Under the pieces are notes generated by a model that saw only the letters and a list, made by a program, of their open reading frames with translations, ran no database searches and was not told where the DNA came from. A program made the translations under genes and the position numbers. 64,000 nt of DNA from Candidatus Parcubacteria bacterium (GTDB lineage: Bacteria; Patescibacteriota; Patescibacteriia; Patescibacteriales; UBA12465): the NCBI GenBank assembly GCA_023444045.1, contig JAEZRQ010000002.1:76102-140101 (forward strand). Reading direction: 5' to 3'. Of this stretch, positions 17,197 through 57,730 are shown piece by piece (within the stretch, counting starts at the first letter, position 1; every line of letters begins with the position of its first letter).

Positions 17197-18828
17197 TTAA
17201 TTACTCCTAGCAGTACTAGAATCCTCCAAATTATTAGTTTTTATATTCATCTTGCGGCGAACAGAATTAATAAAAGTAAGCAATTCTTCACTGCCAAAGA
17301 GATAGCAAAGAAGTAAATAAACCAGAATCCCGGCCAATGAAGCGCCTACTAATTGGGTTAATACGCCAGTAAATCTCGTCATATCAATTAGGGGAGCGAT
17401 GACAATTTTCATTAATTGAATAGTTAAGCCTGCCCCGATACCTGACAGAGAAAATTTAATAGTTGAATTAGCGATTTTAGCAATCCCTAGGTTACCAATC
17501 TTAATATGCATGAAAGTCCACAGTAGAACAAAATTTAAAATATTAGCAATTGAATAAGCTAAGGCTAAACCAATTACCCCCATTCTATTAGCCAACACAA
17601 CACCTAGTATAATATTTACAATAATAGTTACCAAACTAAGATAAAAAGGAGTCTTTGAATCTTGCCTTGCATAAAAAACTCTGATTAAAAGAGGGATAGA
17701 GGCTTGAGCAAATAAGCTGATAGAAAAAAGAGCTAGGCTGTTCATTGTTAAAATGGTGTCCTGCCAATTAAATTGCCCCGCACCCAAAACGACACGAATA
17801 ATCTGAGCCCTTAGAGTAATTAAAAAAATTGTTGCTGGGACGACAAAGAAAAATATCTGTCTGATGGTTGAGGAAAAGTTACTCTCCAATTTTTCTTTGT
17901 CATGAGCATATTGAGAAAGTGCTGGGAAAGCGGCAATCGCAAACGAAATTCCAAAGATGCCAACCGGAAATGATTGTAAGTTGTTAGCTAAATTAAAAAT
18001 TGTTAGAGAGCCAGATGATAATCCAGAGGCGATAACGGTAGTTACCAGTAATCCGAGTTGGGTTACCGCCAAACTTAGGGTTCTAGGAATCATTAATTTG
18101 CCAATCTTAAAGGTAGCAGCGTCTTTCCAGTTTAATTTAAAATAATACTTAAATCCTAAAGAATAAACAGCGGGGATTTGGATGGCCATATGGAAAAAAG
18201 CACCTAAAACAACACCCCAAGCTAGTCCAGGGAGCCCCAGATAATCAGTGAAATAAAGAGCTCCAAAAATGATTCCTAAGTTATAAAAAATAGGAGCTAA
18301 GGAATAGATAAGAAATCTTCTAAATGATTGCAAAATTCCACCCAAGACCCCAGAAATACCTAAAAATAGCGGCGACAAAAACATTATCCTAGTTAGAAGA
18401 ACTGTTGATTCCTGGGCCGACTGGGAAAAACCGGGCGTGATTAAACTCACTAATTCTGGAGTAAAAATTACTCCTAATAAGGAGAATGATAAGAGGAGTA
18501 GAGACAGAAAATTAAGAACATTAGAAGCTAAATGCCAAGCTTCTTCATTTTCCGATGTTTGTTTAGGATCAGAAAAGTTTTTAATTAAAGAACTAAAAAT
18601 GGGAATAAAACCAGCTGAAAGCGCCCCTAAAACAACTAGGTTAAATAATAAATCAGGTACCCTAAAAGCGGCATAATAAATATCTAACTGCTCACCAGCA
18701 CCAAATTCACTAGCTAAAATACGATCTCTAAAAATACCAAGAATTCTAGAAAATAAAGAAGAGGTGGCCACTAAAATGGCCGCAATGGTAATACTATTAG
18801 CTTTCTGTTTAAAAATTTTTTTGAACAT
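17197..18828 (-). CDS. murJ: lipid II flippase MurJ (MviN family)
   Basis: Polytopic membrane protein with the N-terminal LSRILGIFRDRILASEFGAG…YYAAFRVPD signature. Confidence 0.85.
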   Translation of the reverse strand: MFKKIFKQKANSITIAAILVATSSLFSRILGIFRDRILASEFGAGEQLDIYYAAFRVPDLLFNLVVLGALSAGFIPIFSSLIKNFSDPKQTSENEEAWHLASNVLNFLSLLLLSFSLLGVIFTPELVSLITPGFSQSAQESTVLLTRIMFLSPLFLGISGVLGGILQSFRRFLIYSLAPIFYNLGIIFGALYFTDYLGLPGLAWGVVLGAFFHMAIQIPAVYSLGFKYYFKLNWKDAATFKIGKLMIPRTLSLAVTQLGLLVTTVIASGLSSGSLTIFNLANNLQSFPVGIFGISFAIAAFPALSQYAHDKEKLESNFSSTIRQIFFFVVPATIFLITLRAQIIRVVLGAGQFNWQDTILTMNSLALFSISLFAQASIPLLIRVFYARQDSKTPFYLSLVTIIVNIILGVVLANRMGVIGLALAYSIANILNFVLLWTFMHIKIGNLGIAKIANSTIKFSLSGIGAGLTIQLMKIVIAPLIDMTRFTGVLTQLVGASLAGILVYLLLCYLFGSEELLTFINSVRRKMNIKTNNLEDSSTARSN

Positions 18829-32294: not shown

Positions 32295-32329
32295 ATTTTT
32301 TATTATAGCAAAAATCCATAAAATAAAAA

Positions 32330-32430
32330 CTCCACCATGATCTTTAGAGCGATTTGAAAAGCAATGATAATTTCAAGGAGAGAGATTTTGAAAATATCTT
32401 CACTTCTCCGCTCTAAAGGTCGCGGCGGAG
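32330..32430. other. 101-nt element closed by a 22-bp imperfect inverted repeat (terminator/insulator-like or small structured RNA)
   Basis: ctccaccatgatctttagagcg … cgctctaaaggtcgcggcggag, with two internal small hairpins. U-runs follow on both strands (minus: UUUUUAUUUU). Confidence 0.4.
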
Positions 32431-32529
32431 TTTTATAGGTTTTCTAAATATGCTGATATGTTTATTATATCAGTTTTTCTTCTCTGAGACGACTAATTAT
32501 TAGAATTAATTAATCAGCTCGGAAAGGAA

Positions 32530-32553
32530 GCGGACAGTTGAACGACTGTCCGC
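32530..32553 (-). repeat. fourth copy of the GUUCAA-loop hairpin (no ribozyme attached), followed by UUCCUUUCC
   Basis: Minus strand reads GCGGACAG-UCGUUCAA-CUGUCCGC then UUCCUUUCC. The loop and trailing motif match the three cassette hairpins, but the stem sequence is completely different. Confidence 0.6.
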
Positions 32554-32575
32554 GATTTTAGAGTATTTTTAAGAG

Positions 32576-32956
32576 CTACTCTTTACTCTTTTTTTCTCTT
32601 TCTATGCGCCTTCGTTCGCAGAAGCGGCAGTTACCCTTGTGAACCATAGCCACGCCCCTGTCAACTTTAGTTACGATATATTCGCAGCCATCTAAATAGA
32701 TAACCTTGTATGATTCTGGGTTAAATCCATACCTATCAATATAATAAGGATATGTGATAGAATCACTTACTGCGACCATAGAATCACTTACTGCGACCAT
32801 AGAATCACTTACTACTTCTATAGTATTTATCTCCGCAGAATCATTCTTGTCTGACAAATATACCACCTTATACGACGGCACATCCGAACATCCCACACAA
32901 AAAAATGCTAAAATAAAAATTATATTTTTCATTTTTTTAATTTTTAAATTCTCCAA
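32576..32956 (-). CDS. small lipoprotein with VSDSMVA tandem repeat (probable true start ATG at 32932)
   Basis: MKNIIFILAFFCVGC is a lipobox-like signal. The track start at 32956 is a TTG. The basic C-terminus contains CRFC. Confidence 0.6.
   Translation of the reverse strand: MENLKIKKMKNIIFILAFFCVGCSDVPSYKVVYLSDKNDSAEINTIEVVSDSMVAVSDSMVAVSDSITYPYYIDRYGFNPESYKVIYLDGCEYIVTKVDRGVAMVHKGNCRFCERRRIEREKKSKE
32757..32815. repeat. 21-bp tandem repeat x ~2.8 inside the lipoprotein gene
   Basis: atagaatcacttactgcgacc occurs twice, followed by the partial copy atagaatcacttactac. It encodes the in-frame VSDSMVA repeats. Confidence 0.9.
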
Positions 32957-33063
32957 AGCACTATTGCCTGGATTATTCTGAAACTAATTAATTTAATAAG
33001 ATTCAAAATAATCCAAACAATAATTTGAGAATAAAAAATGAAAAGATTTTTTTTAAAGAACAT

Positions 33064-33116
33064 TTCCTTTTCGTCGTTTCCGACTCATCAGCCAAGATAC
33101 ACATCTTGGGAAGGAA
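33064..33116 (-). ncRNA. type III hammerhead self-cleaving ribozyme (copy A)
   Basis: Minus strand reads UUCCU-UC^CCAAGAU-GUGU-AUCUUGG-CUGAUGA-GUCG-GAAA-CGAC-GAAA-AGGAA. The full catalytic core is present (CUGAUGA, GAA, A15.1-U16.1, C17). Stems I and II are closed and stem III is open. Confidence 0.9.
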
Positions 33117-33222
33117 GAGCAGATTTGAACTATCTGCTCTCTATTAAACTATTTTATCCATCCGATTTCGCTCTTAGGATTTAAGGCGCTCAATTTAATG
33201 TCAAGAGGGGACAAAATAATAT
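33117..33222 (-). repeat. intergenic cassette A: conserved ~80-nt module + GUUCAA-loop hairpin
   Basis: The module starts immediately after the stop codon (TAG|ATATTATTTTGTCCCCTCTTGACATTAAATTGAGCGCCTTAAATCCTAAGAGCGAAATCGGATGGATAAAATA). The hairpin GAGCAGAU-AGUUCAA-AUCUGCUC follows. The module is near-identical to cassette B. Confidence 0.8.
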
Positions 33223-33366
33223 CTATTTTTTTCTTACTACCAAGGCAACAAAAATAATTGACACCACGGCTAATGGAATAACACTAAAATTGTTATTATA
33301 GCCCATGAGATAGTTTAAGCCCCACATGCAAGCAAGACCTAAGATAATAATTATTATTTTTTTCAT
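33223..33366 (-). CDS. 47-aa hydrophobic peptide (below ORF-track cutoff)
   Basis: MKKIIIIILGLACMWGLNYLMGYNNNFSVIPLAVVSIIFVALVVRKK*. The conserved cassette begins directly after its stop codon, exactly as it does after the 529-aa gene. Confidence 0.5.
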   Translation of the reverse strand: MKKIIIIILGLACMWGLNYLMGYNNNFSVIPLAVVSIIFVALVVRKK

Positions 33367-33412
33367 TTTATTTGCCTACTCTATTACAGGTTTTCGGCTT
33401 CCCCTGATTTTT

Positions 33413-36400
33413 TTATACTAGTCCGGCTCTGCGCAGAGCGTCGGCTAAGAGGCCATCGCTTGAAGTTTCGCTAGACTCACCATCCACCTCATCTTTACCT
33501 TCTTCATATTGGTAATTTCCAAAATGATAATCATATACATAATATTTGACATCATTTGGGTCGGCCCCTACGAAGAAATCTAAGCCACCAAGCTCCGTCA
33601 GGTGGTCGTACACTCGCGCCCGTCCGCAGTGCCCGACAATATGTTCGTCGAGTTTTTCGGCGGGAAGATTTTCTACATTCTTGACAAATTCAAGTGTGCG
33701 ATTTAAATCTCCACCGAAAGCGTTTAAAAGATAGCGAGGTAACTTGTTTCTTTTTTCAAGCTCCTCTCTTTCTTTTTGACGCACTTTGAACAATTGACTC
33801 AGCTCCGCAATCATTTCTTCTATCTCACGACAGATATTATTAACGTCCGTAAAATCACCTTTTTGCAAAGCTGATTTTACTTCCGAAAGCTGATTGCGAA
33901 TTTCGCGGATTTTCTCGGAAATAAGTTCAGGCTCAACCTCAGTTAAAGTTTTTTCAAAACTTTCTTCGGCATTAATAATTAAAGCATTAGCTTTCTCATA
34001 TTCAACACGAAGATTGTTTTTTATTTCCTCAGCTTTAGTTTCCATCCCTCCTACTCGCTCGGAAGAATTTTCAAGAGTTAACCCCTCTATCATTTCCATT
34101 CTAAGCATTTCAAGGTGATTTTTCAGCGCATTTCCCAGCTCGGTCAGCCCCCAACAATTACGAAAGATTTCTTCATTGGGGATCGTCAAAGCTTCAGAAA
34201 CTTGATTGTTAAAATTACTAACCAAATTTCTTTTCGCTCTTTCAATTTGCTCCTGACGAGCTTTTTCTATTCTTGCTCGGTGTTCACCCAAGGTTTGAGT
34301 ATAACCATCGCAAGAAAGTTTTAGCTCGCGACCACTGGGGAGCGAAACACTCTCCGGTTTGGTTTCAAAAATAAAATTTTCTGAGACCTCAATCTTGGCA
34401 ATAAAATCACCATAATAATGAGTATATACAACAGAAAATTCTTTATCTTCAATCTCTATAACTAAAGGATTTTTTTCCTCAATAGAAGCTATCTCCTCTG
34501 GTGAAATTAATTGAGATAAATTTATTCTTAAATCATCTTGACTTATCTCTTTCTCAAGGAGATTTTCAAGTTGAGTAAAACCAAGTACCTTCCAAGGCTC
34601 CAATACTTTGCAGTATTGTTCGCCAATAACTTCGCTATTGTTTTTTGATTCAATAGCTCCGCCACTACGCGCCCAATATGCATCATATTGGTTCATAATT
34701 TCTGTGTTATCATGATAGAGATTTCTTACAACTTCCGAAGAAGCGTATCTACTCATCATATTGTTCACAAAAATTTTGAAAGCCTCAGCGCTCCACGGAG
34801 CAGTCTTTGCCACCCGAGCAATTTCCATATCGTTAAAAACCGTAATATGGTCTTCAACAACACAATTTTGCTCATCATCCCAATGAAGGTTTTCAACCTT
34901 CTCTGAGACCAGATGTGGCGCCACTTCAGCTAACCAGGCTGGGTCCACTTTTGATGCCATACTTACCAAATTAAGAGTCATAGACCCTCTTCTGGTAGCA
35001 ATCTGCAGATCAAAAGGGATTCCTACGATCCAATCAGGAGTAGATCTCTCTACCACTGAACTAGACCCCAACTCACGGTCAGTGTCATCTCCGTTGCGAT
35101 ATGACCCATACTGGTTTTTATATAGATGGTCTACCATACCGGCACAAACAGCTTTCAGGATGTTTTCCCTTTTACCATTTGTACCAAAACGGAAATGTCC
35201 TTTCAAGGCCTCAGATAAAAGATGTCGAATTTCTTTGGCGCGATAAAAATCACGCAAAGCAATCCCTTTTTCTTTCATCTCGACTTCACTCATTGTGCGA
35301 GATATTTCCCACACTTTGAGCTGAGCCATGATGTCAGACTCTCTTTCATCCGGCACCATACCACGCCAATCTGGGCGGTCGGGTCGATTGCGACTCGGCG
35401 GAGGAACAGTAATGCCGTCCATCTCCATAATCGCAGCAACAGTCAAGACGTCACTTACGACGCCAAGACGATCAGCTTCAATTAACATCCGACCATATTT
35501 CACCGAAACCGGAAGCTTGTTTACCAAGCGACCAATTCCAGTTACCTTGCCTTCGCTAGTCATACAGCCCAAACCAATTAAGGTCTTGCGAGCATCACTG
35601 ATGTCTGATTTAGCGGGCTGATGGAAAAATTCCATCATCTCCATATCAAACCCAGCGATTGCCAGACGCAAAACTGTTTGGTCCAAGCGTTTACGCAGAA
35701 TCTCGGCCACCGGGAAGTCGGGCCTGTTTGAACTCGAGCAGTGATCAATATAGATTCCTGCTTTTGTTCTTCCTGCGCGCCCCTTTCTTTGCTTCGAATC
35801 GGCCAGTGAAATTGGTTTCAGGTATAAACCCTCAACTCCATCAACTAGCTCAATCCGACGTTCAAGTCCGGAATCCACGACGGCATCAATGTCATCAATT
35901 GTCACACTGGTTTGCGCAACATTTGTCGACACTACAACCTTCGGCTTACCATAGTGCGCAAAGCACTTGGCTTGCTCATCTGGTGTGAGTTGTCCGTGAA
36001 GTGGCAGGACTACCGCCGAAACATTCAACTGCGCCAGGCGGTTAATAGTCTCATTGATTTCCTGCTGTCCGGGTTGGAAAACCAGAACATTGTGACCTTC
36101 AGCAACTAAAGTTGCAACATCGGACTCAATGTTATAACCGGCCGTTTTTTCCTCAACCGTGAATGTTCGCCCTGGGACAGAAATGATTGGTGCATTATTA
36201 AAAAATGCACTCAACTTTTCCGACTCCAAAGTCGCACTCATGAGAACTACTTTCATAGTTGAGCCAGTGGCAATTTGAGATTTCACCCAGGCCACCAGAA
36301 CTTCCATGTTTTCGTTCCACTCATGCACCTCATCGAGGACGAGAATGCCTCGATTCTGACCCATAAGCTCACGCACAAGTGCGAGGCCATCGGTGCAAAA

Positions 36401-36688
36401 TAGACAACGGGTTGCGGAACTATCCGCTCGTTCTACCGCGGTGCGGTAGCCGATGGTAACCCCAATTTTTTCGCCCATCTCATAAGCCACGCGAGCAGCA
36501 ACAGAACGGGCGGCGAGTCGGCGGGGTTGAGTCACGACTAAGTCATAACCTGCCTCCAGCAAGTACTGCGGTACTTGCGTGGATTTCCCCGCTCCAGTTT
36601 CGGCCGTAATGACCGTTACTGGATTTTCTTTGATGCTCTTCAGAATCTCATTCCGAAACGCATCAATGGGTAATATTGTTTTTTTCAT
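33413..36688 (-). CDS. DEAH-box (HrpA/HrpB-like, SF2) ATP-dependent RNA helicase with long coiled-coil C-terminal extension
   Basis: Motifs I ETGAGKST, Ia TQPRRLAARSVA, II DEVH, III SAT, V TNVAQTSVTI and VI QRKGRAGR. About 450 aa of K/E-rich C-terminal region follow. Confidence 0.85.
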   Translation of the reverse strand: MKKTILPIDAFRNEILKSIKENPVTVITAETGAGKSTQVPQYLLEAGYDLVVTQPRRLAARSVAARVAYEMGEKIGVTIGYRTAVERADSSATRCLFCTDGLALVRELMGQNRGILVLDEVHEWNENMEVLVAWVKSQIATGSTMKVVLMSATLESEKLSAFFNNAPIISVPGRTFTVEEKTAGYNIESDVATLVAEGHNVLVFQPGQQEINETINRLAQLNVSAVVLPLHGQLTPDEQAKCFAHYGKPKVVVSTNVAQTSVTIDDIDAVVDSGLERRIELVDGVEGLYLKPISLADSKQRKGRAGRTKAGIYIDHCSSSNRPDFPVAEILRKRLDQTVLRLAIAGFDMEMMEFFHQPAKSDISDARKTLIGLGCMTSEGKVTGIGRLVNKLPVSVKYGRMLIEADRLGVVSDVLTVAAIMEMDGITVPPPSRNRPDRPDWRGMVPDERESDIMAQLKVWEISRTMSEVEMKEKGIALRDFYRAKEIRHLLSEALKGHFRFGTNGKRENILKAVCAGMVDHLYKNQYGSYRNGDDTDRELGSSSVVERSTPDWIVGIPFDLQIATRRGSMTLNLVSMASKVDPAWLAEVAPHLVSEKVENLHWDDEQNCVVEDHITVFNDMEIARVAKTAPWSAEAFKIFVNNMMSRYASSEVVRNLYHDNTEIMNQYDAYWARSGGAIESKNNSEVIGEQYCKVLEPWKVLGFTQLENLLEKEISQDDLRINLSQLISPEEIASIEEKNPLVIEIEDKEFSVVYTHYYGDFIAKIEVSENFIFETKPESVSLPSGRELKLSCDGYTQTLGEHRARIEKARQEQIERAKRNLVSNFNNQVSEALTIPNEEIFRNCWGLTELGNALKNHLEMLRMEMIEGLTLENSSERVGGMETKAEEIKNNLRVEYEKANALIINAEESFEKTLTEVEPELISEKIREIRNQLSEVKSALQKGDFTDVNNICREIEEMIAELSQLFKVRQKEREELEKRNKLPRYLLNAFGGDLNRTLEFVKNVENLPAEKLDEHIVGHCGRARVYDHLTELGGLDFFVGADPNDVKYYVYDYHFGNYQYEEGKDEVDGESSETSSDGLLADALRRAGLV

Positions 36689-36794
36689 TTTTTTATTTTT
36701 TTGGTTTTATCAACTACTCAGTAATTTGAGTAACTAATAGAGCCAAAAAAATAGGTAAAATGATAAACCTACTAACTATTTATTTTTTAACGTT

Positions 36795-36847
36795 CTCCTT
36801 TTCGTCGTTTCCGACTCATCAGCTAGGATGCACATCCTAGGAAGGAA
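36795..36847 (-). ncRNA. type III hammerhead self-cleaving ribozyme (copy B)
   Basis: UUCCU-UC^CUAGGAU-GUGC-AUCCUAG-CUGAUGA-GUCG-GAAA-CGAC-GAAA-AGGAG. Stem I has two compensatory base-pair changes relative to copy A. Confidence 0.9.
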
Positions 36848-36951
36848 GAGCAAGTTTGAACGACTTGCTCTTTTTTGAACTTATTTTATCCATCCGATTT
36901 CGCTCTTAGGATTTAAAGCGCTCAATTTAATGTCGAGAGGGGACAAAATAT
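36848..36951 (-). repeat. intergenic cassette B: conserved ~80-nt module + GUUCAA-loop hairpin
   Basis: TAA|ATATTTTGTCCCCTCTCGACATTAAATTGAGCGCTTTAAATCCTAAGAGCGAAATCGGATGGATAAAATA, then the hairpin GAGCAAGU-CGUUCAA-ACUUGCUC (compensatory relative to A). Confidence 0.8.
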
Positions 36952-38541
36952 TTACGCCTGGAGTTTATCGTAGGCTCCAGCAAACCCGCGGCCAGCGTCA
37001 CCGTAAGCCTGATATAGGCCATTGGCAGCTGCCCAGCCGTTGGGATACGTCGGGCGACCGTCAACCATCGCAACTTCACCGAGAAATTCGGCAACAACCG
37101 GTTTAGGTCCAGACAGGTTTACCTTATCTGGGAAACGTTTGTCGCCTTTGGCAAGATATGCGGTTCCAGTCATCACCCCCGCCTCAACGAGAAAAGGAAT
37201 AGGACCTAAATCGCGAACATCAGCCACCTGAATGTCGCCCAATGTTACGGTTCTGTCCGGATTTTTCAGCAGCTTCACAGCCGCTTCAATCTCTGTCATT
37301 GCTTCAGCCTCCGATGAAACGTTTTCGCGTTTCATGATTTCCGGAAGACGCATAGCGAGCACTTCAGCTGCAGTAACACCAGGACACTGTCCGGCGTAAG
37401 CAGCGGCCAAGCAATGGTCGGCGGCGGCGATTACCCTGTCTTCTTGCGTTGGTTCAATTCTCAAAAATTTCAGGAGTTGACCCAAACTGGAAGCTTCCAG
37501 GTATTGAGCTGGTGGCAAACCGAATCCAGCGTTACCAGGATTATGATGGTCGCACTGAGCGACAATCGTAAGTCCAGCCGCGGCAGACGGAGCACATTCA
37601 AATATGATGCACTCCAGGCAATCCGTAGATTCACCTGCTTCGCTATCTATCTGATATCCGTCCGCCCGGTAAGCCGTCATGGGGTTACATTTTTCACCAC
37701 CCATGGTTGCGGTAGCTAAAAGTAAACCGTGCTGAATCGCAATTTTTCTGGCCCGTTGCTCCTCGATGTCGGGAGCACCAAAAATGATTACTCGCGGACA
37801 AAATGTTTCGTGGATGAAATTTTCCAAAGCGGTTTGGTCTGCGTATCCACCCCAGAAGGCATTAGTTTTAGTCGTAAGTCCTCCAGTCCAACCGCCAGGA
37901 AATTTGGCATCAATAGCCTTCACCACAGCAGGTGTGCCATAATAATTACTTTCACCATCTCCTGATAAAATCAAAAGATTTTGGCGAGTGCCCTGGGTTT
38001 CAAAAACTCTGTCAGCAATCGGCGCCGTTTTAGAATGTGCACAACGCACAACAACTAATCCGTTCGTGAATTTTTCCTGAGCCGCGACTGCCCGCTCGGC
38101 TTCAATCTCCTGCTCTGAAGTAATCCCCTGGCAAGAGCGGTCGAAAGCGCGCACTTGACGTATTTCTTCGATGGAAGCACCAGAGGCAACAAGCCCCGGG
38201 ATATACCCTTCGTCGTTAATGGCAATAAGAATATCTTCGCGGGTCGGTTTTACACCGATTAATTCAAGCACCTGCAGAATACTCTGCGGATTTCCGCTAA
38301 AATCACCATGATGATCAATTATCAAAGCATTAGTTGGCAGCTCAATATCAACCACCAATTCAATGAGAACAGGGATTTTACCAGCAGTTGTAACAGCTTT
38401 AATTGCGTCACTATAAGCTGAAGCTTTCGCACCCCAACCTAAATTGCCATTTATAACCTCGGCGCTAACCTCGGTTAAAATTTTTTCAATTTGCATCATT
38501 TCAGCATCTTTGCCTCCTAAAAAAAATACGAACTTTTTCAT
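36952..38541 (-). CDS. hypothetical two-domain protein with duplicated DHH-type motif (possible phosphoesterase)
   Basis: 529 aa and very GC-rich. IIDHHGD is at aa 74-80 and CDHHNPG at aa 330-336, each preceded by a similar beta-strand-like start (FVFFLGGKDAEM and VIIFGAPDIEEQ). Family not recognised. Confidence 0.6.
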   Translation of the reverse strand: MKKFVFFLGGKDAEMMQIEKILTEVSAEVINGNLGWGAKASAYSDAIKAVTTAGKIPVLIELVVDIELPTNALIIDHHGDFSGNPQSILQVLELIGVKPTREDILIAINDEGYIPGLVASGASIEEIRQVRAFDRSCQGITSEQEIEAERAVAAQEKFTNGLVVVRCAHSKTAPIADRVFETQGTRQNLLILSGDGESNYYGTPAVVKAIDAKFPGGWTGGLTTKTNAFWGGYADQTALENFIHETFCPRVIIFGAPDIEEQRARKIAIQHGLLLATATMGGEKCNPMTAYRADGYQIDSEAGESTDCLECIIFECAPSAAAGLTIVAQCDHHNPGNAGFGLPPAQYLEASSLGQLLKFLRIEPTQEDRVIAAADHCLAAAYAGQCPGVTAAEVLAMRLPEIMKRENVSSEAEAMTEIEAAVKLLKNPDRTVTLGDIQVADVRDLGPIPFLVEAGVMTGTAYLAKGDKRFPDKVNLSGPKPVVAEFLGEVAMVDGRPTYPNGWAAANGLYQAYGDAGRGFAGAYDKLQA

Positions 38542-38659
38542 TTTTTTATTTTTTTACCTCCTAACACATGTTCGGATTATTCTAAAACCCAAAATAATAA
38601 TTGAGATTTAAAATAATCCAAACAAATGCTTGATAAAAAAATATTTTATTTAAATGAAC

Positions 38660-38712
38660 TTCCTTTTCGTCGTTTCCGACTCATCAGCCAAGACACACAT
38701 CTTGGGAAGGAA
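38660..38712 (-). ncRNA. type III hammerhead self-cleaving ribozyme (copy C)
   Basis: UUCCU-UC^CCAAGAU-GUGU-GUCUUGG-CUGAUGA-GUCG-GAAA-CGAC-GAAA-AGGAA. The core is intact, with one U-G wobble in stem I. Confidence 0.9.
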
Positions 38713-38735
38713 GAGCAGATTTGAACTATCTGCTC
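38713..38735 (-). repeat. GUUCAA-loop hairpin (copy C)
   Basis: GAGCAGAU-AGUUCAA-AUCUGCUC sits directly 5' of hammerhead C. Here the upstream ~200 nt differ from the A/B module. Confidence 0.75.
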
Positions 38736-38939
38736 ATTTGTATTCTGTGTCGCCAGAATTTGCGTTGCCTAACTTTTTCCTGGTCAGGAGATATGAACAT
38801 ATCTCTTTTCGACAATCAAACCAGACTAAATTTTTACGTGTTAATTAGTTTTTCACGTCCAAGAAATTTATTCTAGATGAAGGCTTTACCTTCTTGGATT
38901 CCCCTGTTATGCCAACAAGACAGGGGTTAGCTAACCGAT

Positions 38940-39185
38940 TTATGACCAAACTTCTTTGATAATTTCAATCGGAATGCCAAGAATATCTAAATCTGATGGG
39001 GTTAACCCTTCAGATTTTAATTTCTTAGCTGTAGCTAAGGCCTTAGATCTCTCCGATTTTATTCGGAAATCTTCGACCTCTCTGCTGCAAGCATCACAGT
39101 AGCCGTCAGTGCCGCCCATATAATGGCCAGTCGCATTAGCTCCACAGCGCTTACAGGAACCAAAATATCCCGCCATAGCTTTCAA
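38940..39185 (-). CDS. small Zn-ribbon protein (CxxC…CxxC) with helical C-terminus
   Basis: CKRC…17 aa…CDAC. The track start is a TTG, and an in-frame ATG at 39176 gives 78 aa. Confidence 0.55.
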   Translation of the reverse strand: MKAMAGYFGSCKRCGANATGHYMGGTDGYCDACSREVEDFRIKSERSKALATAKKLKSEGLTPSDLDILGIPIEIIKEVWS

Positions 39186-39940
39186 AAATCTTACTATAAA
39201 AATTTCTAGAAGCTATAGCTGATTTTTTAAAATTTAAGGAACAACTCTTCCGAAGAAGTTTCTAAGTCCCAAACTTGTTCAAGGTTTAGAGGCTTAGCCG
39301 ATCTCTTCGTAAGAAAACGGTTGAAGAAACGATTGTTCTTGGAACTTACTCGTCGCTTACATTACGCAAGCTAATTGGGCCACCAAATACTTAATCAAAG
39401 TCTTTCGTGAGTTCCGGTTTGCAACGGACCTAACTACTTAACTAATTTCTTCTACCCACTTTTGTGGAGCAAACTAACAGAGCTGTAAATCTTAGGACAT
39501 GGACTCTCTCCGTCCACCTCAATCTCCTAAAATTTTCAATCACCTGTTTGGTGCTGCTTATTCCCTAAGCAACTTGGGAAGATTATGTACTAATCTTTTT
39601 TATGAATAGAATAGGCAATCATGAAGGGGAAAATTGCTTTATTAACTGAGTTAAACTAGGCATGGGGCGTCTAGTCATCTTAATCTCAATGTTTTTTGGC
39701 AGTTTATATATTGAGCTTCAACTTAAGTCTTGTGGCTAAAGCAGAGCTAAACCATCTTTATTCCTCTTCATAACTGCCTATTCTAAAAAAAGATAATAAA
39801 TGGAAACGGGTTAAACCTCATATAAGGAGATAAGCCGCTTTCACCTATTATCTTTATAGTTGAATGCTTTGACTTAATATCTGGCTCTCTCCTTCCATTT
39901 ATTAATTGTTTCTTTTGTTTGAATGTACTACCATCTTAAC
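39186..39940 (-). ncRNA. ~750-nt ORF-free, hairpin-rich leader / candidate large non-coding RNA of the island operon
   Basis: No ORF of 60 aa or more occurs in any frame. It lies downstream of a near-consensus minus-strand promoter. Many strong local helices are visible, for example an 11-bp AAAUUUUAGGA/UCCUAAGAUUU stem, an 11-bp AAUAAAUGGAA/UUCCAUUUAUU stem, and UUCG- and GNRA-like loops. The strand is inferred from the promoter and operon context. Confidence 0.4.
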
Positions 39941-39947
39941 TGTCTAA

Positions 39948-39976
39948 AGTATAGCATTATTTTATACTATTGTCAA
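39948..39976 (-). promoter_or_regulatory. near-consensus sigma70-type promoter driving the island operon
   Basis: Minus strand reads TTGACA (39976..39971), a 17-nt spacer, then TATACT (39953..39948). The -35 is embedded in the palindrome TATTGtCAATA. Confidence 0.55.
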
Positions 39977-40072
39977 TACTAAATAAGACATTTTTAGACT
40001 AATGTAAGTAAAGATGCTGACAATATTCATCTATATCCGCTTATTTATTATTAAATATTGTCATTTTATAAG

Positions 40073-40101
40073 TTGACATTTTTATTTTAAGGCGCTATAA
40101 T
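40073..40101 (+). promoter_or_regulatory. consensus sigma70-type promoter for the TrmB-like regulator gene
   Basis: TTGACA, a 17-nt spacer, then TATAAT (both perfect), about 50 nt upstream of the ATG at 40155. Confidence 0.65.
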
Positions 40102-40154: not shown

Positions 40155-40904
40155 ATGTACGAAAAAATCATTAATAATTTAGGGCTTTCAAAGGTCCAGG
40201 CAGAAATATTTAACTGTCTACTAATAAACGGCAGTGATAAAGCTAGTAATATCGCTAGAAAAATAAAAAGGCCACGTGGTGTGGCTTATAAGGGTTTAGA
40301 AGAATTAGTATTTATGAAACTAGCAATCAAAGACGAGGATAAAAAAGGAATTGCTGTTTTTTCCGCTGAACACCCCAGCCATTTAGAAGATATTTTGGAT
40401 AAAAAAGAAAAAGAGTTTAAACACAGTCGTCAAGAATTTTTAAATAATTTACCGGACCTAATTTCTTCTTATAATTTAAGCAATAACAAACCGGGAGTTA
40501 AGTTTTATGAGGGTGAGGAAGGAATAGAGAAATCATTAAACGATACTTTACTAGCTAAAGACATTATTTATACTTTCGCTGATATTGAGGCGGTTGAGAA
40601 TAATATCAAACCAATTCAAGATGCTTATGCTAAAAAAAGAGAAAAGCAAAAAATAAAAAAAAGAGTTATCGTTGCCGACACCTCTTTTAATAGAAATTTT
40701 TTAAAAGGATTCAATAATGAATGGACTGAATTTAAATTCTTGCCACCAGAATTCTATAATTTTAGCAGCGGAGTTCAGATTTACGATAATAAGGTGTCTT
40801 ACCAGGTAATTGCCCCAGATAAAAAAATGGCAATAATTATTGAAGACTCCCACGTTTATCAGATGAATAGATTAATCTTTGAGTATCTTTGGAAAACCCT
40901 TTAA
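40155..40904 (+). CDS. TrmB-like winged-helix transcriptional regulator
   Basis: The N-terminus LGLSKVQAEIFNCLLINGSDKASNIARKIKRPRGVAYKGLEELVFMKL fits the TrmB-type wHTH pattern. Confidence 0.6.
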   Translation: MYEKIINNLGLSKVQAEIFNCLLINGSDKASNIARKIKRPRGVAYKGLEELVFMKLAIKDEDKKGIAVFSAEHPSHLEDILDKKEKEFKHSRQEFLNNLPDLISSYNLSNNKPGVKFYEGEEGIEKSLNDTLLAKDIIYTFADIEAVENNIKPIQDAYAKKREKQKIKKRVIVADTSFNRNFLKGFNNEWTEFKFLPPEFYNFSSGVQIYDNKVSYQVIAPDKKMAIIIEDSHVYQMNRLIFEYLWKTL

Positions 40905-43900
40905 TTTTTTTCAAAAACCAAATAACGGACATCACCAGGAAGATTTTTATCTTTAAAATACCTAGTTAGTAAGTATTTGTCTTCTTCTTTTTTTACTAAT
41001 TGATCATCTGACTCAGCTAAGAATAAAGATAAGGCTTTCTCATATTCAGACATTTCTGAAACTAAATCAAACTTCAAAACAACTACTGGTTCCCCCAAGG
41101 ATTCTTTAATTTCTTTTTTATTAATAATTAATTTTTTTAAACTATCTTCACTTAAATTTTTTGTATTCAACCTTTGATTTAAATTTTTATCTAATTTAAT
41201 AGAAAACATTTTTTCTCCGCTGCCATGATAACTATCAATAATAGCATCAGCAATAAAACCAACTTTTTCAACATAAGAACAGCCGGCTGGAATTTTAATT
41301 GATACTGCCGCCTCCAAAACATTTTTATTCCCTTCTGCCATCAGAGCTTTTTCCATTAAAACGTTGCCAATTGACAAACCTCTTAAATCTTTTGAAACAT
41401 TAAAAGACCCAGCATAAATATTATCATGATCAGTTTTCTCAAAACGGACAAAACCAATAACATCATCTTGATGTTTTAAAATATAAGCTTTTTGTTCTTT
41501 AACATCAACTAGAGACTTCTCTAAACCGTCAAGAACCGTCTCGGCCATTTTTTTATTATCAAAATCTGACCAGTTGTCCCTAGCAATACCAAGAACTTGC
41601 TGTTTATCATCTTCCGACATATCCTGGCCATAATCTTTAATATCTAAACTAATATTTTTGATAAGTTCAAGATCTAAGGTATCGCCACTGTTCTTAAGAG
41701 ATTCTAGGACCGAAACAAGAAAGAGGGTTTCAATTTTATTGTTTTCTAGTTTATCTAAGATAATTTTTAAATCATCTGAATTATTGTTTTCTAAGTCGCC
41801 CGAAAAACTAACAATAATATTATGCATTTTTTCTAAAAGTTTTTCTCTAAGTACCTTAAAATTTAGTTCCTTTTTTTCTTTGAAAAATAGGTTTTGCAAT
41901 TCCTCATTTTTTTTATCAATCAAATCAACAATTTGAGCAACTTTTCCAAAGAATAAGCTGCTGTTATCTCTCATTTTCTGGTCTATTGAGATTATTTTTT
42001 CAGCATCACTCTCTTCTACTCTTAAAGACAGGAATGATTTTACCTTATTTAATTTATCGTCCCCATCTTTTGCATTATTTATAAATTCAGCAGTTTGTTT
42101 AATTTTTTCTTCATTACTCTCGCTTAAAAATTTGAGTAAATATATCTGATATCGAAAGGGAATCTCTTTTAAGTTAATACCAACAACGTCTTTGATGTAT
42201 GATTCCATATCCGGACGATGCATGTGTTTTAAAAGCAAAATCGTCTCGTCACTATTATCTTCGGGGATAAAATTGACAATCTGATCGTCTTTAGTTAAAT
42301 CATTATAAGCACTAAAGTTAACTTTCAAAACATCACCATCTAAGGCCGCCTTTATTTCGGTTATTTTTTTAGCAATGCCGTTTAACAAAGACTCAGGGTC
42401 AGAGCAAATTGAAGATAACACCTGATAATGAGACTGAATTAATTCATAATTATCTTTTTCAGCTTTAGAGTATAAATCATTAATTTGTTTTTCCGCTGAA
42501 TTAAAATTTTCGTGATGGAGTGACCTTAATTTATTATATTCAATAAATAAACCATGGTCGTTTTTCCCTAGATTATTTAAGACAACGACAAAATCAACAG
42601 CAGTTGAATAAGCTAACTCTATTTTTTCTTTATCATAAGACTCAATAAAATCTTGAATCATTTCTTGAAAGCCACTATTTAATGAGTTAAAGACCCCTTT
42701 GCTAATTTCTTTTTTAAAAAAATCTAAAAAATTCTCCGATGCCTTAAGATTTTTTTCTTCCGCCTCATTCATAATACTAGAACGCTTAAGAAGTAAGTCA
42801 TCTTTAATCATCTCCAATTCTTTTTGTTTATTAAAAAAGTCAGAAAAATCATCTTCTGAAAGATTATCACTAATCTCTGACCAAGATTTAGCTAGTTTTT
42901 TTTCATCGCTACCACAATAAGGAATTAAAATTTTATGATTCAAGTAAACAATTAGATTTTCAAAATTTATTTTATTTGGCTGACTTAAAACGCTCTCTAA
43001 CTTTGTTATATCCTTAACAGAAATTTCACTTCCCATTTCTGTCTTTTTCTTCTGGTTAAACTCATCTTCTGAAAATAAACCATATTTTATTGGCATATTA
43101 CTATGATCAACTATAGCAACCGTATCAGAAGCCACCCGCACAATTTTATTATTAGGATCAACTAAGACATCTGGTAAAATTAATTTTTCTATATATTGAG
43201 AATCTTTTTTTTCTTCTTCTGATAAAGACTCATTTAATCTTAGATTACCAACATTTTCGGAAAACTTAACTATTCCTAAAGTAGGATTATCTTCTTCACT
43301 ATCAACTCTTTTTTCAACCAAATCAATTGCCCACCGTAAGAGAGCTGAGTCTGTTTTCTCTCTCATATCGGCTAATAGTTGATGAAGATTGTCCAAACCT
43401 TTTTGAGACGAACCAGTGCCAGCGGAATTGGCCGCTAACAATTTTATCAAATGAAGTTCATCAAATTGCTCTGCATAAGAGCTCCTATTAAATGCTTCTA
43501 ATAATTTAGCAAAGTCTTTTTCTCTATATTCCCAAGACAGACTGTAAACCAAGTCATCAGCCATACAGCCGCCAATTTGACCATAATTTTCTACCGCCCT
43601 AGTAGCTCTAGCTGTCAAGGCAAATTTGTCCGCTATATCCAAATTGGAACTTAAACTGGGACTGCTGCTGAAAAAATTATTTCTAACTGCTTTTAAAAAA
43701 TAATCAAAATTCGGATGCTGGCTATTGTGCTCACAAAAGTTTAATAAAGAAGTGACAATTATTTTATTAGCTGCTCTAAGCTTGCCAGAATATTCCTCCC
43801 TGGGATCAAAATCTTTGTCCCTAGCTTTAAAAAAAGAATTAATTTGCTCCTCGAAATAAACAATAGCCTCAAAACTATCATTAATTTCTACATTTTTATT

Positions 43901-44062
43901 TAAATATTTAGTAAAAAAATCCGTGGCCAAATCTTCTAAGGCATTTTTTTCCTGCTGGCTTAAAATACTCTGGTCTGCTAACAAAATCTCCTTTTCTTTA
44001 CCAGGATTATCTTTTTCGTTGCTAATTAGATTAAAATTATTTGGGTTGTTTTCTTTAAACAT
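40901..44062 (-). CDS. large orphan protein with C-terminal GNAT acetyltransferase-like domain
   Basis: 1053 aa and K/E/N/D-rich. The C-terminal ~150 aa carry a GNAT motif-A-like LRGLSIGNVLMEKAL, preceded by VIGFVRFE. Confidence 0.6.
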   Translation of the reverse strand: MFKENNPNNFNLISNEKDNPGKEKEILLADQSILSQQEKNALEDLATDFFTKYLNKNVEINDSFEAIVYFEEQINSFFKARDKDFDPREEYSGKLRAANKIIVTSLLNFCEHNSQHPNFDYFLKAVRNNFFSSSPSLSSNLDIADKFALTARATRAVENYGQIGGCMADDLVYSLSWEYREKDFAKLLEAFNRSSYAEQFDELHLIKLLAANSAGTGSSQKGLDNLHQLLADMREKTDSALLRWAIDLVEKRVDSEEDNPTLGIVKFSENVGNLRLNESLSEEEKKDSQYIEKLILPDVLVDPNNKIVRVASDTVAIVDHSNMPIKYGLFSEDEFNQKKKTEMGSEISVKDITKLESVLSQPNKINFENLIVYLNHKILIPYCGSDEKKLAKSWSEISDNLSEDDFSDFFNKQKELEMIKDDLLLKRSSIMNEAEEKNLKASENFLDFFKKEISKGVFNSLNSGFQEMIQDFIESYDKEKIELAYSTAVDFVVVLNNLGKNDHGLFIEYNKLRSLHHENFNSAEKQINDLYSKAEKDNYELIQSHYQVLSSICSDPESLLNGIAKKITEIKAALDGDVLKVNFSAYNDLTKDDQIVNFIPEDNSDETILLLKHMHRPDMESYIKDVVGINLKEIPFRYQIYLLKFLSESNEEKIKQTAEFINNAKDGDDKLNKVKSFLSLRVEESDAEKIISIDQKMRDNSSLFFGKVAQIVDLIDKKNEELQNLFFKEKKELNFKVLREKLLEKMHNIIVSFSGDLENNNSDDLKIILDKLENNKIETLFLVSVLESLKNSGDTLDLELIKNISLDIKDYGQDMSEDDKQQVLGIARDNWSDFDNKKMAETVLDGLEKSLVDVKEQKAYILKHQDDVIGFVRFEKTDHDNIYAGSFNVSKDLRGLSIGNVLMEKALMAEGNKNVLEAAVSIKIPAGCSYVEKVGFIADAIIDSYHGSGEKMFSIKLDKNLNQRLNTKNLSEDSLKKLIINKKEIKESLGEPVVVLKFDLVSEMSEYEKALSLFLAESDDQLVKKEEDKYLLTRYFKDKNLPGDVRYLVFEKN

Positions 44063-57407: not shown

Positions 57408-57730
57408 GCCTCGGTAGCTCAGTGGTAGAGCAAAGGACTGAATTTCGGTCCGTCCTGTAGAAACACAGGAATGAAAATCGGGTGAATTCGGAGAAACCTT
57501 AATTATTAAAATTTTTAATAAAAGGCAATTCCGAGCCAAGCCTTAACTGGGATAAAATGTTAAGGAAGGTGTAGAGACTAGCGGGTGAGCCCAACAATAA
57601 CCCCGCCGCGAGCGCCCGACTCCGTCTTTGTAGAAATATAAACGGAGATGATATAGTCCGATCCTTAAGGAAACTTAAGAAAATACTAAGGAAAATCCTT
57701 GTGTCGTCAGTTCGATTCTGACCCGGGGCA
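57408..57730 (+). tRNA. tRNA-Phe (GAA) interrupted by a group I intron in the anticodon loop
   Basis: Exon 1 is 57408..57439 and exon 2 is 57691..57730. Joined, they give a 72-nt cloverleaf with acceptor GCCUCGG/CCGGGGC, anticodon loop CU|GAAAA and T-loop UUCGAUU. Confidence 0.85.
57440..57690 (+). ncRNA. group I self-splicing intron (251 nt)
   Basis: P1 forms between the exon end GGACU and the internal guide GGUCC, with a U.G wobble at the splice site. The intron ends in G. There are P7-like strands AGACUA…AUAUAGUC and a terminal CUUAAG-GAAA-CUUAAG hairpin. The core resembles bacterial tRNA group I introns. Confidence 0.8.

Follow-up and report, generated by a model that had tools for sequence, protein, structure and literature searches.

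Architecture of the locus

Here we describe one operon of a Candidatus Parcubacteria bacterium (contig JAEZRQ010000002.1) through its layout, promoter, hammerhead ribozymes, hairpin modules, enzyme families, synteny and gene linkage. The operon lies on the minus strand of the 64-kb stretch of DNA that was analysed, hereafter the window, and coordinates are window positions unless another contig is named; L-numbers (L001, L005, L110, L129 and so on) denote other contigs or stretches compared with the window. Five minus-strand open reading frames (ORFs), all co-oriented, make up the block: a Zn-ribbon ORF (38940-39176; 78 aa counted from the ATG, CxxC...CxxC), a tandem NrN-like DHH phosphodiesterase ORF (36952-38541; 529 aa), an HrpA-like DEAH/RHA helicase ORF (33413-36688; 1091 aa), a hydrophobic ORF (33223-33366; 47 aa) and a putative lipoprotein ORF (32576-32932; 118 aa, MKNIIFILAFFCVGC...).

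The five genes stand behind a single near-consensus promoter (39976..39948, minus strand; TTGACA-17-TGcTATACT, 11/12 consensus matches plus an extended TG -10) and are flanked by ftsK and by a divergently encoded TrmB-family regulator of 249 aa (40155..40904, plus strand; Pfam TrmB, 31.2 bits against a cut-off of 25.6). An initial annotation had already read this arrangement from the ORF list and had matched the gene set to no annotated system, which agrees with our searches: no NCBIfam name scores above its cut-off, and Pfam is blank for the 529-aa protein. The same annotation interpreted the block as a recently acquired, ribozyme-centred RNA system. Its observations proved largely right, and this interpretation is only partly supported.

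Hammerhead ribozymes in the intergenic gaps

Three gaps of the operon carry a type III hammerhead, each on the minus (sense) strand, and hammerheads occur in intergenic gaps only. Hammerhead 1 (38659..38713) matches RF00008 at 42.2 bits (E 1.1e-6), with predicted cleavage after C38706; hammerhead 2 (36794..36848) matches it partially (36800-36828, 18.6 bits, E 5.2), with predicted cleavage after C36841; and hammerhead 3 (33063..33117) scores 39.1 bits (E 8e-6), with predicted cleavage after C33110. Rfam at its gathering threshold (48.5 bits) returned zero hammerheads, and all three were detected in E-value mode only, their scores being low because the short stem II tetraloop costs bits. The 23-nt core plus stem II, CTGATGAGTCGGAAACGACGAAA, is identical in all three copies, and the estimated chance expectation of one such match in the 128 kb of searched strand is about 2e-9. 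The catalytic core (CUGAUGAG...CGAAA, with a UC cleavage site before stem I) is intact in 3/3, and stems I and III can pair in each. The minimum free energy structure is the hammerhead fold in two copies; in the 33054-33144 copy, stems I and II form and an alternative pairing replaces stem III (z -3.2 to -3.7). Relative to copies 1 and 3, hammerhead 2 shows compensatory changes in stem I and in the adjoining hairpin, H1.

Covariation was assessed over 30 non-redundant members of the hammerhead family. Across this set 97.8% of cells are paired. The alignment reaches a covariation score of 0.72, compared with 0.18 when shuffled and no more than 0.11 in slid controls. Changes on both sides of a pair were found for 6/6 pairs of stem I and 4/5 of stem III; the search pattern prescribed stem II, which accordingly does not vary. 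Given this covariation and the intact cores, these are genuine hammerheads of a subfamily spread across the candidate phyla radiation (CPR), as the claim of three intact type III ribozymes had it, and self-cleavage is predicted at all three.

A search for the exact CTGATGAGTCGGAAACGACGAAA core, with each species represented by one genome, gave at least 119 stretches, nearly all from Patescibacteria among the matches listed. Those listed are mostly from Saccharibacteria, often with several per genome, and the others come from Paceibacterota, Parcubacteria, Nomurabacteria, Sungiibacteriota and Taylorbacteria. The subfamily is characterised by stem II GUCG-GAAA-CGAC and stem I loop AUGUGURU, and its members score 36-47 bits on RF00008 (relatives, L010-L128). 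Since this lies under the Rfam threshold, the subfamily is probably missing from annotations; none of the literature searched ties hammerheads to CPR bacteria or to Saccharibacteria. Across Patescibacteria the copies adjoin unrelated genes, and in most copies outside Saccharibacteria H1 stands immediately 5' of stem III. A family covariance model finds hammerheads in the window (3), L005 (2), L110 (2), L129 (1) and L132 (2), and none in L130, L007, L131 and L146. The suggestion that the ribozymes are a built-in part of an RNA-based system was thus not borne out: the family sits beside unrelated genes, three operon relatives (L130, L007 and L146) lack hammerheads, and positions differ from those in L005.

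Two features of the wider family were noted in passing. Saccharibacteria copies have in common a longer conserved 5' flank, CUGCUUGUCAGUUCGCUC, and many are preceded by a hairpin whose loop and 3' arm read CUCUCUCC. In each of three IMG/VR viral contigs (L137, L138 and L139), one strand carries about ten cores of the form CUGAUGAG-stem-CGAAA at intervals of 0.2-1.9 kb. Rfam was run on L137 alone and recognised just one of its cores as Hammerhead_3 (47.4 bits) and one as Hammerhead_1. Contigs of this type may represent a phage genome densely punctuated by hammerhead variants.

Hairpin modules flanking the ribozymes

Every hammerhead is preceded by H1 with zero spacer. H1 (GAGCAGAUAGUUCAAAUCUGCUC) lies directly 5' of hammerhead 1 at 38714..38735 (minus strand, as for all elements of this section), forms a unit with hammerhead 2 at 36794..36870, and occupies 33118-33139 ahead of hammerhead 3. 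Among copies the stem covaries, whereas the GUUCAA loop is retained. A third element, the 69-nt D3 module, occurs directly 3' of the stop codon at 36882..36950 and again at 33150-33218, where D3, H1 and hammerhead 3 together span 33063..33218. A long hairpin in the 5' untranslated region (5'UTR; GGAUUAUUUUR...YAGAAUAAUCC) lies between ribozyme 1 and the ribosome-binding site (RBS) of the 529-aa gene (38566..38628), and a second copy precedes the lipoprotein gene (32960..33024; folding z-score -7.7 over 32955-33035). The cassettes are therefore modular, in that gaps 36689-36951 and 32957-33222 have D3 (97% identical), H1 and the hammerhead in common, and gaps 38542-38939 and 32957-33222 have H1, the hammerhead and the long 5'UTR hairpin in common. 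Both accessory modules recur in L005 and L129, D3 at 10877-10935 and 9054-9125, respectively, with compensatory changes in its closing stem. D3 always stands directly after a stop codon and before H1, and has the conserved core CUCUCGACAUUAAAUUGAGCGCUUUAAAUCCUAAGAGCGAAAU. As an internal promoter D3 was rejected for lack of an acceptable -10 element, and its small ORFs (MDKI...) were rejected as coding since neither their frames nor their lengths are conserved.

The last gap of the operon (32295-32575) contains a different element, LH (32477..32553), which is non-catalytic and marks the operon end in the window. LH comprises an H1-type hairpin (32530-32553), UUCCUUUCC, a long imperfect hairpin and AGAGAAGAA, and is in effect the hammerhead cassette minus core and stem II. 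Its folding z-score is -6.5, and its H1 scores as terminator-like. Copies are present in L005, L129, L130 and L007; across six copies from the window, L005 and L129, 9 of the 25 aligned pairs show compensatory changes, and the hairpin base carries a conserved pyrimidine/purine sequence in common with hammerhead stem III. In L005, D3 and then LH lie between the C-half and helicase genes, where the corresponding gap of the window has D3, H1 and a hammerhead, so hammerhead and LH are positional alternatives. The statement that every long gap carries a hammerhead cassette accordingly holds for three gaps, and the last has a non-catalytic relative. A '60-aa gene' of L005 was rejected as coding, as it overlies H1 and LH and its frame and length are not conserved.

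The shortest gap (33367-33412) has no hammerhead and contains a DUF805b RNA motif (RF02914) at 33373..33407, immediately upstream of the 47-aa ORF, with 49.7 bits against a gathering threshold of 35.6 (E 4.9e-12) and a full-length match to model positions 1-35. No DUF805 gene was found downstream of it, the 47-aa ORF having no Pfam match at E up to 0.1, and the main texts of the DUF805b literature yielded nothing usable.

Several known arrangements resemble these cassettes. In prophage transcripts, clustered hammerheads flank genes, and triple arrangements cleave polycistronic RNA in vitro (Perreault et al. 2011, PMC3088659). As in those clusters, the operon has several sense-strand hammerheads between co-oriented genes, implying gene-length mRNAs. 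It differs in being a chromosomal, syntenic CPR operon with no phage or integrase genes; in having copies that are all type III with one fixed stem II (GUCG-GAAA-CGAC); in placing H1 before each hammerhead and a long 5'UTR hairpin after 2/3; and in the replacement of hammerheads by a non-catalytic hairpin in its relatives.

Also comparable are the RiboJ-type synthetic insulators, reportedly described by Lou et al. in 2012, which are said to place a hammerhead-type ribozyme and a downstream hairpin before the RBS. Ribozyme, hairpin and RBS follow the same order in the operon, an arrangement that would likewise remove upstream RNA context, but the operon cassette is natural, its activity is predicted, and an additional upstream hairpin may guard the 3' end of the preceding mRNA. 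LH, in turn, is reminiscent of the RNase III processing hairpins between genes in phage T7 early transcripts. Both are hairpins in the gaps of a polycistronic unit, long and imperfect in the case of LH, for which RNase III cleavage is hypothetical; unlike the T7 hairpins, LH carries at its base the conserved sequence in common with hammerhead stem III.

It is scarcely probable that the hammerhead cassettes are selfish repeats that have multiplied inside the operon and play no part in its expression. Such an origin would suit the 76-97% identity of the within-operon copies, the different positions in the window and L005, and the scattering of the family through Saccharibacteria with several copies per genome. 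Selfish elements would not be expected to keep a perfect catalytic core in every copy, to change their stems solely through compensatory substitutions, or to lie on the sense strand between genes wherever they occur in the operon and in its relatives. The register of H1 and of the 5'UTR hairpin is also fixed, and the gaps of relatives have a structurally analogous element that is non-catalytic.

A tandem NrN-like protein and an HrpA-like helicase

On sequence and model evidence, the 529-aa protein is a tandem of two putative NrN-like phosphodiesterase domains. The tandem DHH motifs recognised earlier fall into an N-type domain (aa 1-250; E14, D76-H77-H78 and D110) and a C-type domain (aa 251-529; D258, E260, D331-H332-H333 and D375). 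The halves are 26% identical (E 0.008), the C-half being a diverged second copy, and eight homologues show the invariant C-type motifs FGAPD.E, CDHHNPG and AAADH. Neither Pfam nor NCBIfam contains a match to the protein. Its first 204 residues match the NrN chains in the PDB (9lq9; phmmer E 4.5e-26), and PADLOC models match its N-terminal region (C3a116, 4e-69; DHH_CorA, 5.9e-47). The AlphaFold2 model has a predicted local distance difference test (pLDDT) score of 92, and Foldseek aligns it to NrN with a template modelling (TM) score of 0.80 and 30% identity; GdpP, NrnA and RecJ are the next matches. In the alignment with 9lq9, the equivalents of NrN E21 and D119 and the DHH triad are conserved.

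An argument from the rarity of the superfamily was dropped, as 47 word-index matches compare with 1,979 clusters in the exhaustive search. Among those 1,979 clusters of relatives (50% identity), only one other has the tandem form. Operon-type relatives are rare (47 word-index matches and 6 metagenome loci; C-type alignment search), and the protein has zero matches in 50,697 INPHARED phage records. A relative 45% identical to the N-half is an NrN-CorA fusion encoded beside Cmr2/Cas10, Cmr3 and Cmr5; C-type relatives occur in two phage-like contigs, and an N-type relative in a toxin-antitoxin-rich island.

NrN hydrolyses SAM-AMP, the messenger of CorA-type III-B CRISPR, and cuts neither pApA nor cyclic oligoadenylates (PMC10600005). 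The view of the DHH protein as an RNA enzyme is not upheld by this closest characterised relative. The 529-aa protein resembles NrN (Chi et al. 2023, PMC10600005; PDB 9lq9-9lqc) in fold, identity, DHH triad and the E21/D119 equivalents. It differs in its fusion of two diverged domains in tandem (separate genes in L005), in its partnership with an HrpA-like helicase, and in having no Cas10, CorA or CRISPR context: tblastn found no match to Cas10, Cmr or CorA in the window at E up to 1, and all three are absent from the gene tables of L001, L005, L129 and L130.

The kinship with NrN raises the possibility of a signalling-type defence module, in which the helicase would sense foreign RNA, a partner would make an adenylylated messenger, a membrane protein would be the effector, and the NrN-like enzyme would serve as off-switch, as it does for CorA in type III CRISPR. 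We regard this as unlikely. The N-half's relative beside the Cmr genes, the matching CRISPR-associated DHH models of PADLOC, and the distant relatives in phage-like contigs (C-type) and in a toxin-antitoxin island (N-type) all favour it; so do accessory genes that vary by lineage, core genes with an anomalous G+C content at third codon positions (GC3), and the predicted membrane proteins that repeatedly adjoin the NrN-like gene (L129 g191, L130 g317, L007 g120 and the 47-aa peptide of the window). These membrane proteins are not mutually homologous, however, and no nucleotidyltransferase, cyclase, Cas10 or CorA is encoded in the window or the operon relatives. The stable chromosomal site beside ftsK and rpoBC, and the HrpA-type accessory domains of the helicase, which are typical of housekeeping RNA helicases, also speak against a defence module.

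The helicase has a core (aa 1-620) and a helical C-terminal region of 470 aa that is poorly conserved and fast-diverging. The core matches HrpA in the PDB (6zwx) with E 1.6e-72 over aa 6-619, and Pfam recognises the DEAD, Helicase_C and HA2_C domains and, weakly, an OB domain (E 0.047). DUF3418 is undetected by Pfam in the window helicase, and the L129 orthologue reaches 25.3 bits against a cut-off of 25. The C-terminus is modelled poorly by AlphaFold (pLDDT 61) and has 5 homologues only. Orthologues of the helicase occur in L005, L129, L130 and L146. E. coli HrpA is an RNA helicase (PMC8325345) and splits collided ribosomes (PMC11419001). The operon helicase resembles it (PMC8325345; PMC11419001) in its DEAH core, HA2 and OB-like region, together with a candidate DUF3418-type C-terminus in the L129 orthologue. 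It departs from E. coli HrpA in lacking an N-terminal domain of ~75 aa, in scoring far under the equivalog cut-offs, in the fast divergence of its C-terminal 470 aa, and in being encoded together with phosphodiesterases. As far as we know, phosphodiesterases do not share an operon with hrpA in E. coli. Sequence, profile and structure searches, of the kind that the initial annotation had proposed for its proteins, gave these NrN-like and HrpA-like identities.

A plainer account would make the pair part of housekeeping RNA turnover, with the lineage's own HrpA, a nanoRNase-type DHH exonuclease, and ribozymes that do no more than set expression ratios. DHH nucleases often partner helicases, RecJ with RecQ and Cdc45 with MCM, and both the similarities to HrpA and to DHH/DHHA1 proteins (NrnA, GdpP and RecJ) and the placement among ftsK, a Mur ligase and rpoB/rpoC are compatible with this account. 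We nevertheless judge it distinctly improbable. Operon-type relatives are as rare as given above, and a single 50%-identity cluster with the tandem form stands against the 1,979 of the superfamily; NrN-like genes in L007 and L131 occur with no helicase; characterised NrN leaves pApA uncut (PMC10600005); and a dedicated repressor with a leader of about 0.8 kb would be unusual for a constitutive function.

The three small ORFs had been counted as parts of the system, a view that the comparison with relatives did not uphold. The Zn-ribbon ORF has nothing significant in Pfam and no homologue in related loci; for the 47-aa ORF, searches of Pfam, NCBIfam and PADLOC and the comparison with relatives were all negative; and the putative lipoprotein likewise has no homologue in relatives. 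With no counterparts there, the three are, judging from sequence, lineage-specific passengers and not system components. The lipoprotein gene contains a 21-nt tandem repeat (7 aa, VSDSMVA; 32757-32826) of variable number; in L001, an assembly from this same organism, a unit is missing and the protein has 111 aa instead of 118.

Conservation and composition of the locus

Beyond the window's own lineage, the operon is found in at least four Patescibacteria lineages, at 34-85% protein identity. A common order is found in L005 (a Patescibacteria metagenome-assembled genome), L110, L129 and L130: a large protein, TrmB, a gap of 0.8-1.4 kb, the NrN-like gene(s) and the helicase. The large protein gene converges with TrmB and its product has a GNAT match in closer relatives; the gap is followed by small variable ORFs, and a membrane protein often precedes the helicase. 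In the window, L005 and L129, ftsK comes next. In L005 the NrN halves are two genes with a hammerhead between them, sharing 34% (N-half) and 83.5% (C-half) identity with the window protein. L146 has the helicase followed by a C-type NrN-like gene, and this retention of the pair in reverse order argues for its functional coupling. L007 has a C-type gene and no helicase, and L131 an N-type gene in another context. The co-occurrence search thus bears out a linkage of helicase and NrN-like genes in several lineages; hammerheads are absent from the operon relatives L130, L007 and L146.

In L110, about 1.9 kb (685-2600) between a hammerhead and a fragment matching helicase residues 822-1047 only is ORF-free; this stretch could be a decayed helicase/C-type region or could be non-coding.

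The block had also been described as compositionally foreign. Sliding GC and tetranucleotide profiles confirm this for two stretches only, the core of the helicase (aa 1-620) and the gene of the 529-aa protein: GC is 0.47-0.54 over about 34750-38350, against a window mean of 0.364 (300-nt windows), and the 34-39 kb region is the strongest tetranucleotide outlier of the 64 kb (z 3.6-5.9). The rest of the block, comprising the leader, the Zn-ribbon gene, the C-terminal third of the helicase, the 47-aa ORF and the lipoprotein gene, is at background, and the GC of the whole block is 0.416. The two core genes have a GC3 of 0.45-0.46, whereas ftsK, rpoB, rpoC and the genes for TrmB and the GNAT protein lie at 0.24-0.31. 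Every relative likewise shows raised GC and GC3 in the NrN-like and helicase genes; in L130 the GC3 values are 0.73 and 0.60 (neighbours 0.23-0.27), and in L007 0.50 (neighbours 0.16-0.20). Synteny and this recurrent excess together indicate that the locus is old and its core genes persistently anomalous. Recurrent replacement from GC-richer relatives is one possibility for the source of the GC3 excess.

These data bear on whether the block is a recent genomic island or prophage remnant whose ribozyme clusters came with a mobile element, which we consider very unlikely. The strongest compositional outlier of the window, the GC3 contrast with neighbouring genes, the typical occurrence of hammerhead clusters in prophages (PMC3088659) and the same core in three viral contigs could be read in its favour. 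The anomaly is, however, confined to two genes and repeated in all relatives, and synteny extends to at least four further lineages at 34-85% protein identity, with the same neighbours throughout (TrmB and the large protein, plus ftsK in three). Consistent with the earlier finding of no mobility genes, the gene table lists no integrase, transposase or tRNA within about 10 kb of the block, and neither flanking direct repeats nor phage structural genes occur at the locus, whose neighbours are ftsK, a Mur ligase and rpoB/rpoC. The 529-aa protein is unmatched in the phage records searched, and no relative was seen with an empty TrmB-ftsK junction and attachment-site-like repeats. Recent horizontal acquisition was thus not borne out; judging from sequence comparison, the operon is conserved in one Patescibacteria group (CPR, Paceibacteria-like) and is no freshly acquired island.

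Promoters, regulator and leader

The divergent TrmB gene has a promoter of its own (40073..40101, plus strand) with 12/12 consensus matches. TrmB orthologues occupy the same position in L005 (67% identity), L110 (56%), L129, L130 and L007. The blocks between the TrmB gene and the operon are conserved among relatives in the leader alignment, both hexamers of the operon promoter are nearly invariant in the three-way version, and a promoter of the same form is also present in L132. Inverted TGTCA/TGACA repeats in the interval that separates the promoters (39977-40100) may serve as operators.

Between the operon promoter and the first ORF lies a non-coding leader of ~765 nt (39177..39941, minus strand). 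Leaders of the window, L005, L110 and L129 have conserved blocks in common, and each leader contains 3-4 hairpins with the loop sequence (A)AGGAGAGAG; the GGAGAGAG motif occurs on the sense strand 3-4 times per leader in every relative. In the window, hairpin loops carry AAGGAGAGAG at 39891 and 39510, with a decayed copy near 39770. The 3' domain (39233-39537, ~300 nt) is structured and conserved, RNAalifold predicting 85 pairs, 19 of them with compensatory changes, from four sequences only. The Rfam search of the window matched the leader to no family. CsrA was considered as a possible binder of the GGA loops, but no homologue is present in the contigs and stretches examined.

A similar regulatory arrangement occurs with other genes in L132 (1-4100 and 15749-18700), where two TrmB units each have a gap of about 1.4 kb, small genes and one hammerhead (3756-3833 and 18306-18363). 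In the first unit the promoter reads TTGACA-17-TGCTATACT, and the leader contains four GAGGAGAGA motifs. Both units differ in cargo from the window; that of the first includes a nicotianamine-synthase-like protein, a leucine-rich repeat (LRR) protein and a 644-aa protein whose resemblance to the helicase is limited to the C-terminal region.

The L132 units suggest a reusable regulatory platform. In its full form, this idea describes a reusable expression platform of Paceibacteria-like CPR bacteria, made up of TrmB repressor, fixed promoter, GGAG(AG)-loop leader of 0.8-1.4 kb, and H1 with a hammerhead or long hairpin, and we give it a low probability. The leader would then act on downstream elements or on a protein, for instance as a processive antiterminator; alternatively, its GGAGAGAG loops might base-pair with the operon-end CUCUCUCC element, making the leader a sponge. 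As cargo, the window would carry a new nucleotide-signal or RNA-surveillance system that joins an HrpA-like helicase to NrN-like phosphodiesterases outside CRISPR.

A model for operon function

The reading we prefer, to which we assign about an even chance, is that of a lineage-conserved chromosomal accessory operon for a helicase/phosphodiesterase pair, in which ribozyme and hairpin cassettes yield separately stabilised mRNAs. The TrmB-family regulator probably controls, and would repress, the strong sigma-70 promoter, from which transcription would pass through the structured leader and then the five ORFs. The primary transcript is predicted to cut itself at 38706|38705, 36841|36840 and 33110|33109, giving four RNAs: the leader with the Zn-ribbon ORF (RNA 1), the tandem NrN-like phosphodiesterase (RNA 2), the HrpA-like helicase with the 47-aa peptide (RNA 3) and the lipoprotein (RNA 4). 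Each upstream product would end in H1 plus seven nucleotides with a 2',3'-cyclic phosphate, and each downstream product would begin with a 5'-OH and the folded ribozyme body, followed by a long hairpin before the RBS. With both ends protected at each cut, every cistron would therefore be insulated and stabilised separately and to a different degree, in line with proposals, in part demonstrated, for the hammerhead clusters of prophages (PMC3088659). The cassettes would be generic CPR mRNA-processing modules, and more distant operon relatives have in the equivalent kind of gap a non-catalytic long hairpin, a possible RNase III site or terminator.

The functional core of the operon, judged by family membership and gene linkage, would be the helicase and the NrN-like phosphodiesterase(s), acting as a stress- or conflict-linked RNA-surveillance pair. 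The DEAH helicase may translocate on RNA or on stalled ribosome-mRNA complexes, and what the DHH enzyme hydrolyses may be very short RNA, or a small 5'-adenylylated molecule, made or released along the way.

Several points weigh against this accessory operon model. Self-cleavage and co-transcription rest on sequence prediction, and all three hammerheads score under the RF00008 gathering threshold. Hammerhead positions in the window and L005 are not orthologous, and the copies within the operon are 76-97% identical, so the cassettes turn over and could be partly selfish. The helicase scores 315.6 bits against the HrpA equivalog (TIGR01967) cut-off of 722.75 and lacks the HrpA N-terminal domain (E. 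coli residues 1 to about 76), its residue 6 aligning to HrpA 77. The Cas10/CorA context of characterised NrN is absent from the window and the operon relatives, a signal-making enzyme is not visible in the operon, and the GC3 excess of the core genes is unexplained by vertical inheritance alone.

Both the gene combination and several of the RNA elements appear to be undescribed. Hammerhead-segmented polycistronic units are known from prophages and, as far as we could find, none has been reported for CPR chromosomal operons with such hairpins. The operon offers a testable example, from the chromosome of a CPR cell, of self-cleaving ribozymes that would act as insulators built into an operon and, with both flanking hairpins present, a natural counterpart of an engineered part. 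NrN-type enzymes are otherwise known only as SAM-AMP off-switches of type III CRISPR; their partnership with an HrpA-like helicase suggests a new substrate class, or nucleotide-conjugate turnover tied to RNA or ribosome surveillance. The leader, D3, LH, the 5'UTR hairpin and an element upstream of ftsK are unclassified conserved RNAs that are amenable to study in vitro, with no need for culture.

Neighbouring features

The element upstream of ftsK is conserved and structured and lies between the operon end and ftsK (window about 32300-32440, minus sense; L005 14700-14900; L129 14330-14530). Rfam gives no match to it. A long-range stem, AAAACUCCGCC/GGUGGAGUUUU, is followed by a U-run and encloses an inner stem, CUUUAGAGCG/CGCUCUAAAG, and a CUCUCUCC tract, near 32380 in the window, is exactly complementary to the GGAGAGAG loops of the leader. 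On the minus strand at 32302-32310, an extended -10 element, TGCTATAAT, for which no -35 element was found, stops 7 nt short of the ftsK ATG (32294); because of this spacing, the ftsK mRNA may be leaderless.

On the other side of the operon, a gene for a 1053-aa protein (40901-44062, minus strand) converges with the TrmB gene with a 4-nt overlap. Its only recognisable domain is a C-terminal GNAT acetyltransferase, and at a GC of 0.30 the gene is a low-side compositional outlier (z about 3). Homologues in L005, L110 and L007, and large proteins in the same place in L129 and L130, show the same arrangement.

Farther away in the window, a tRNA-Phe(GAA) gene (57408-57730, plus strand), uncalled by ARAGORN, contains, within its anticodon loop, a ~250-nt group I intron (RF00028, 96 bits, 57430-57680).

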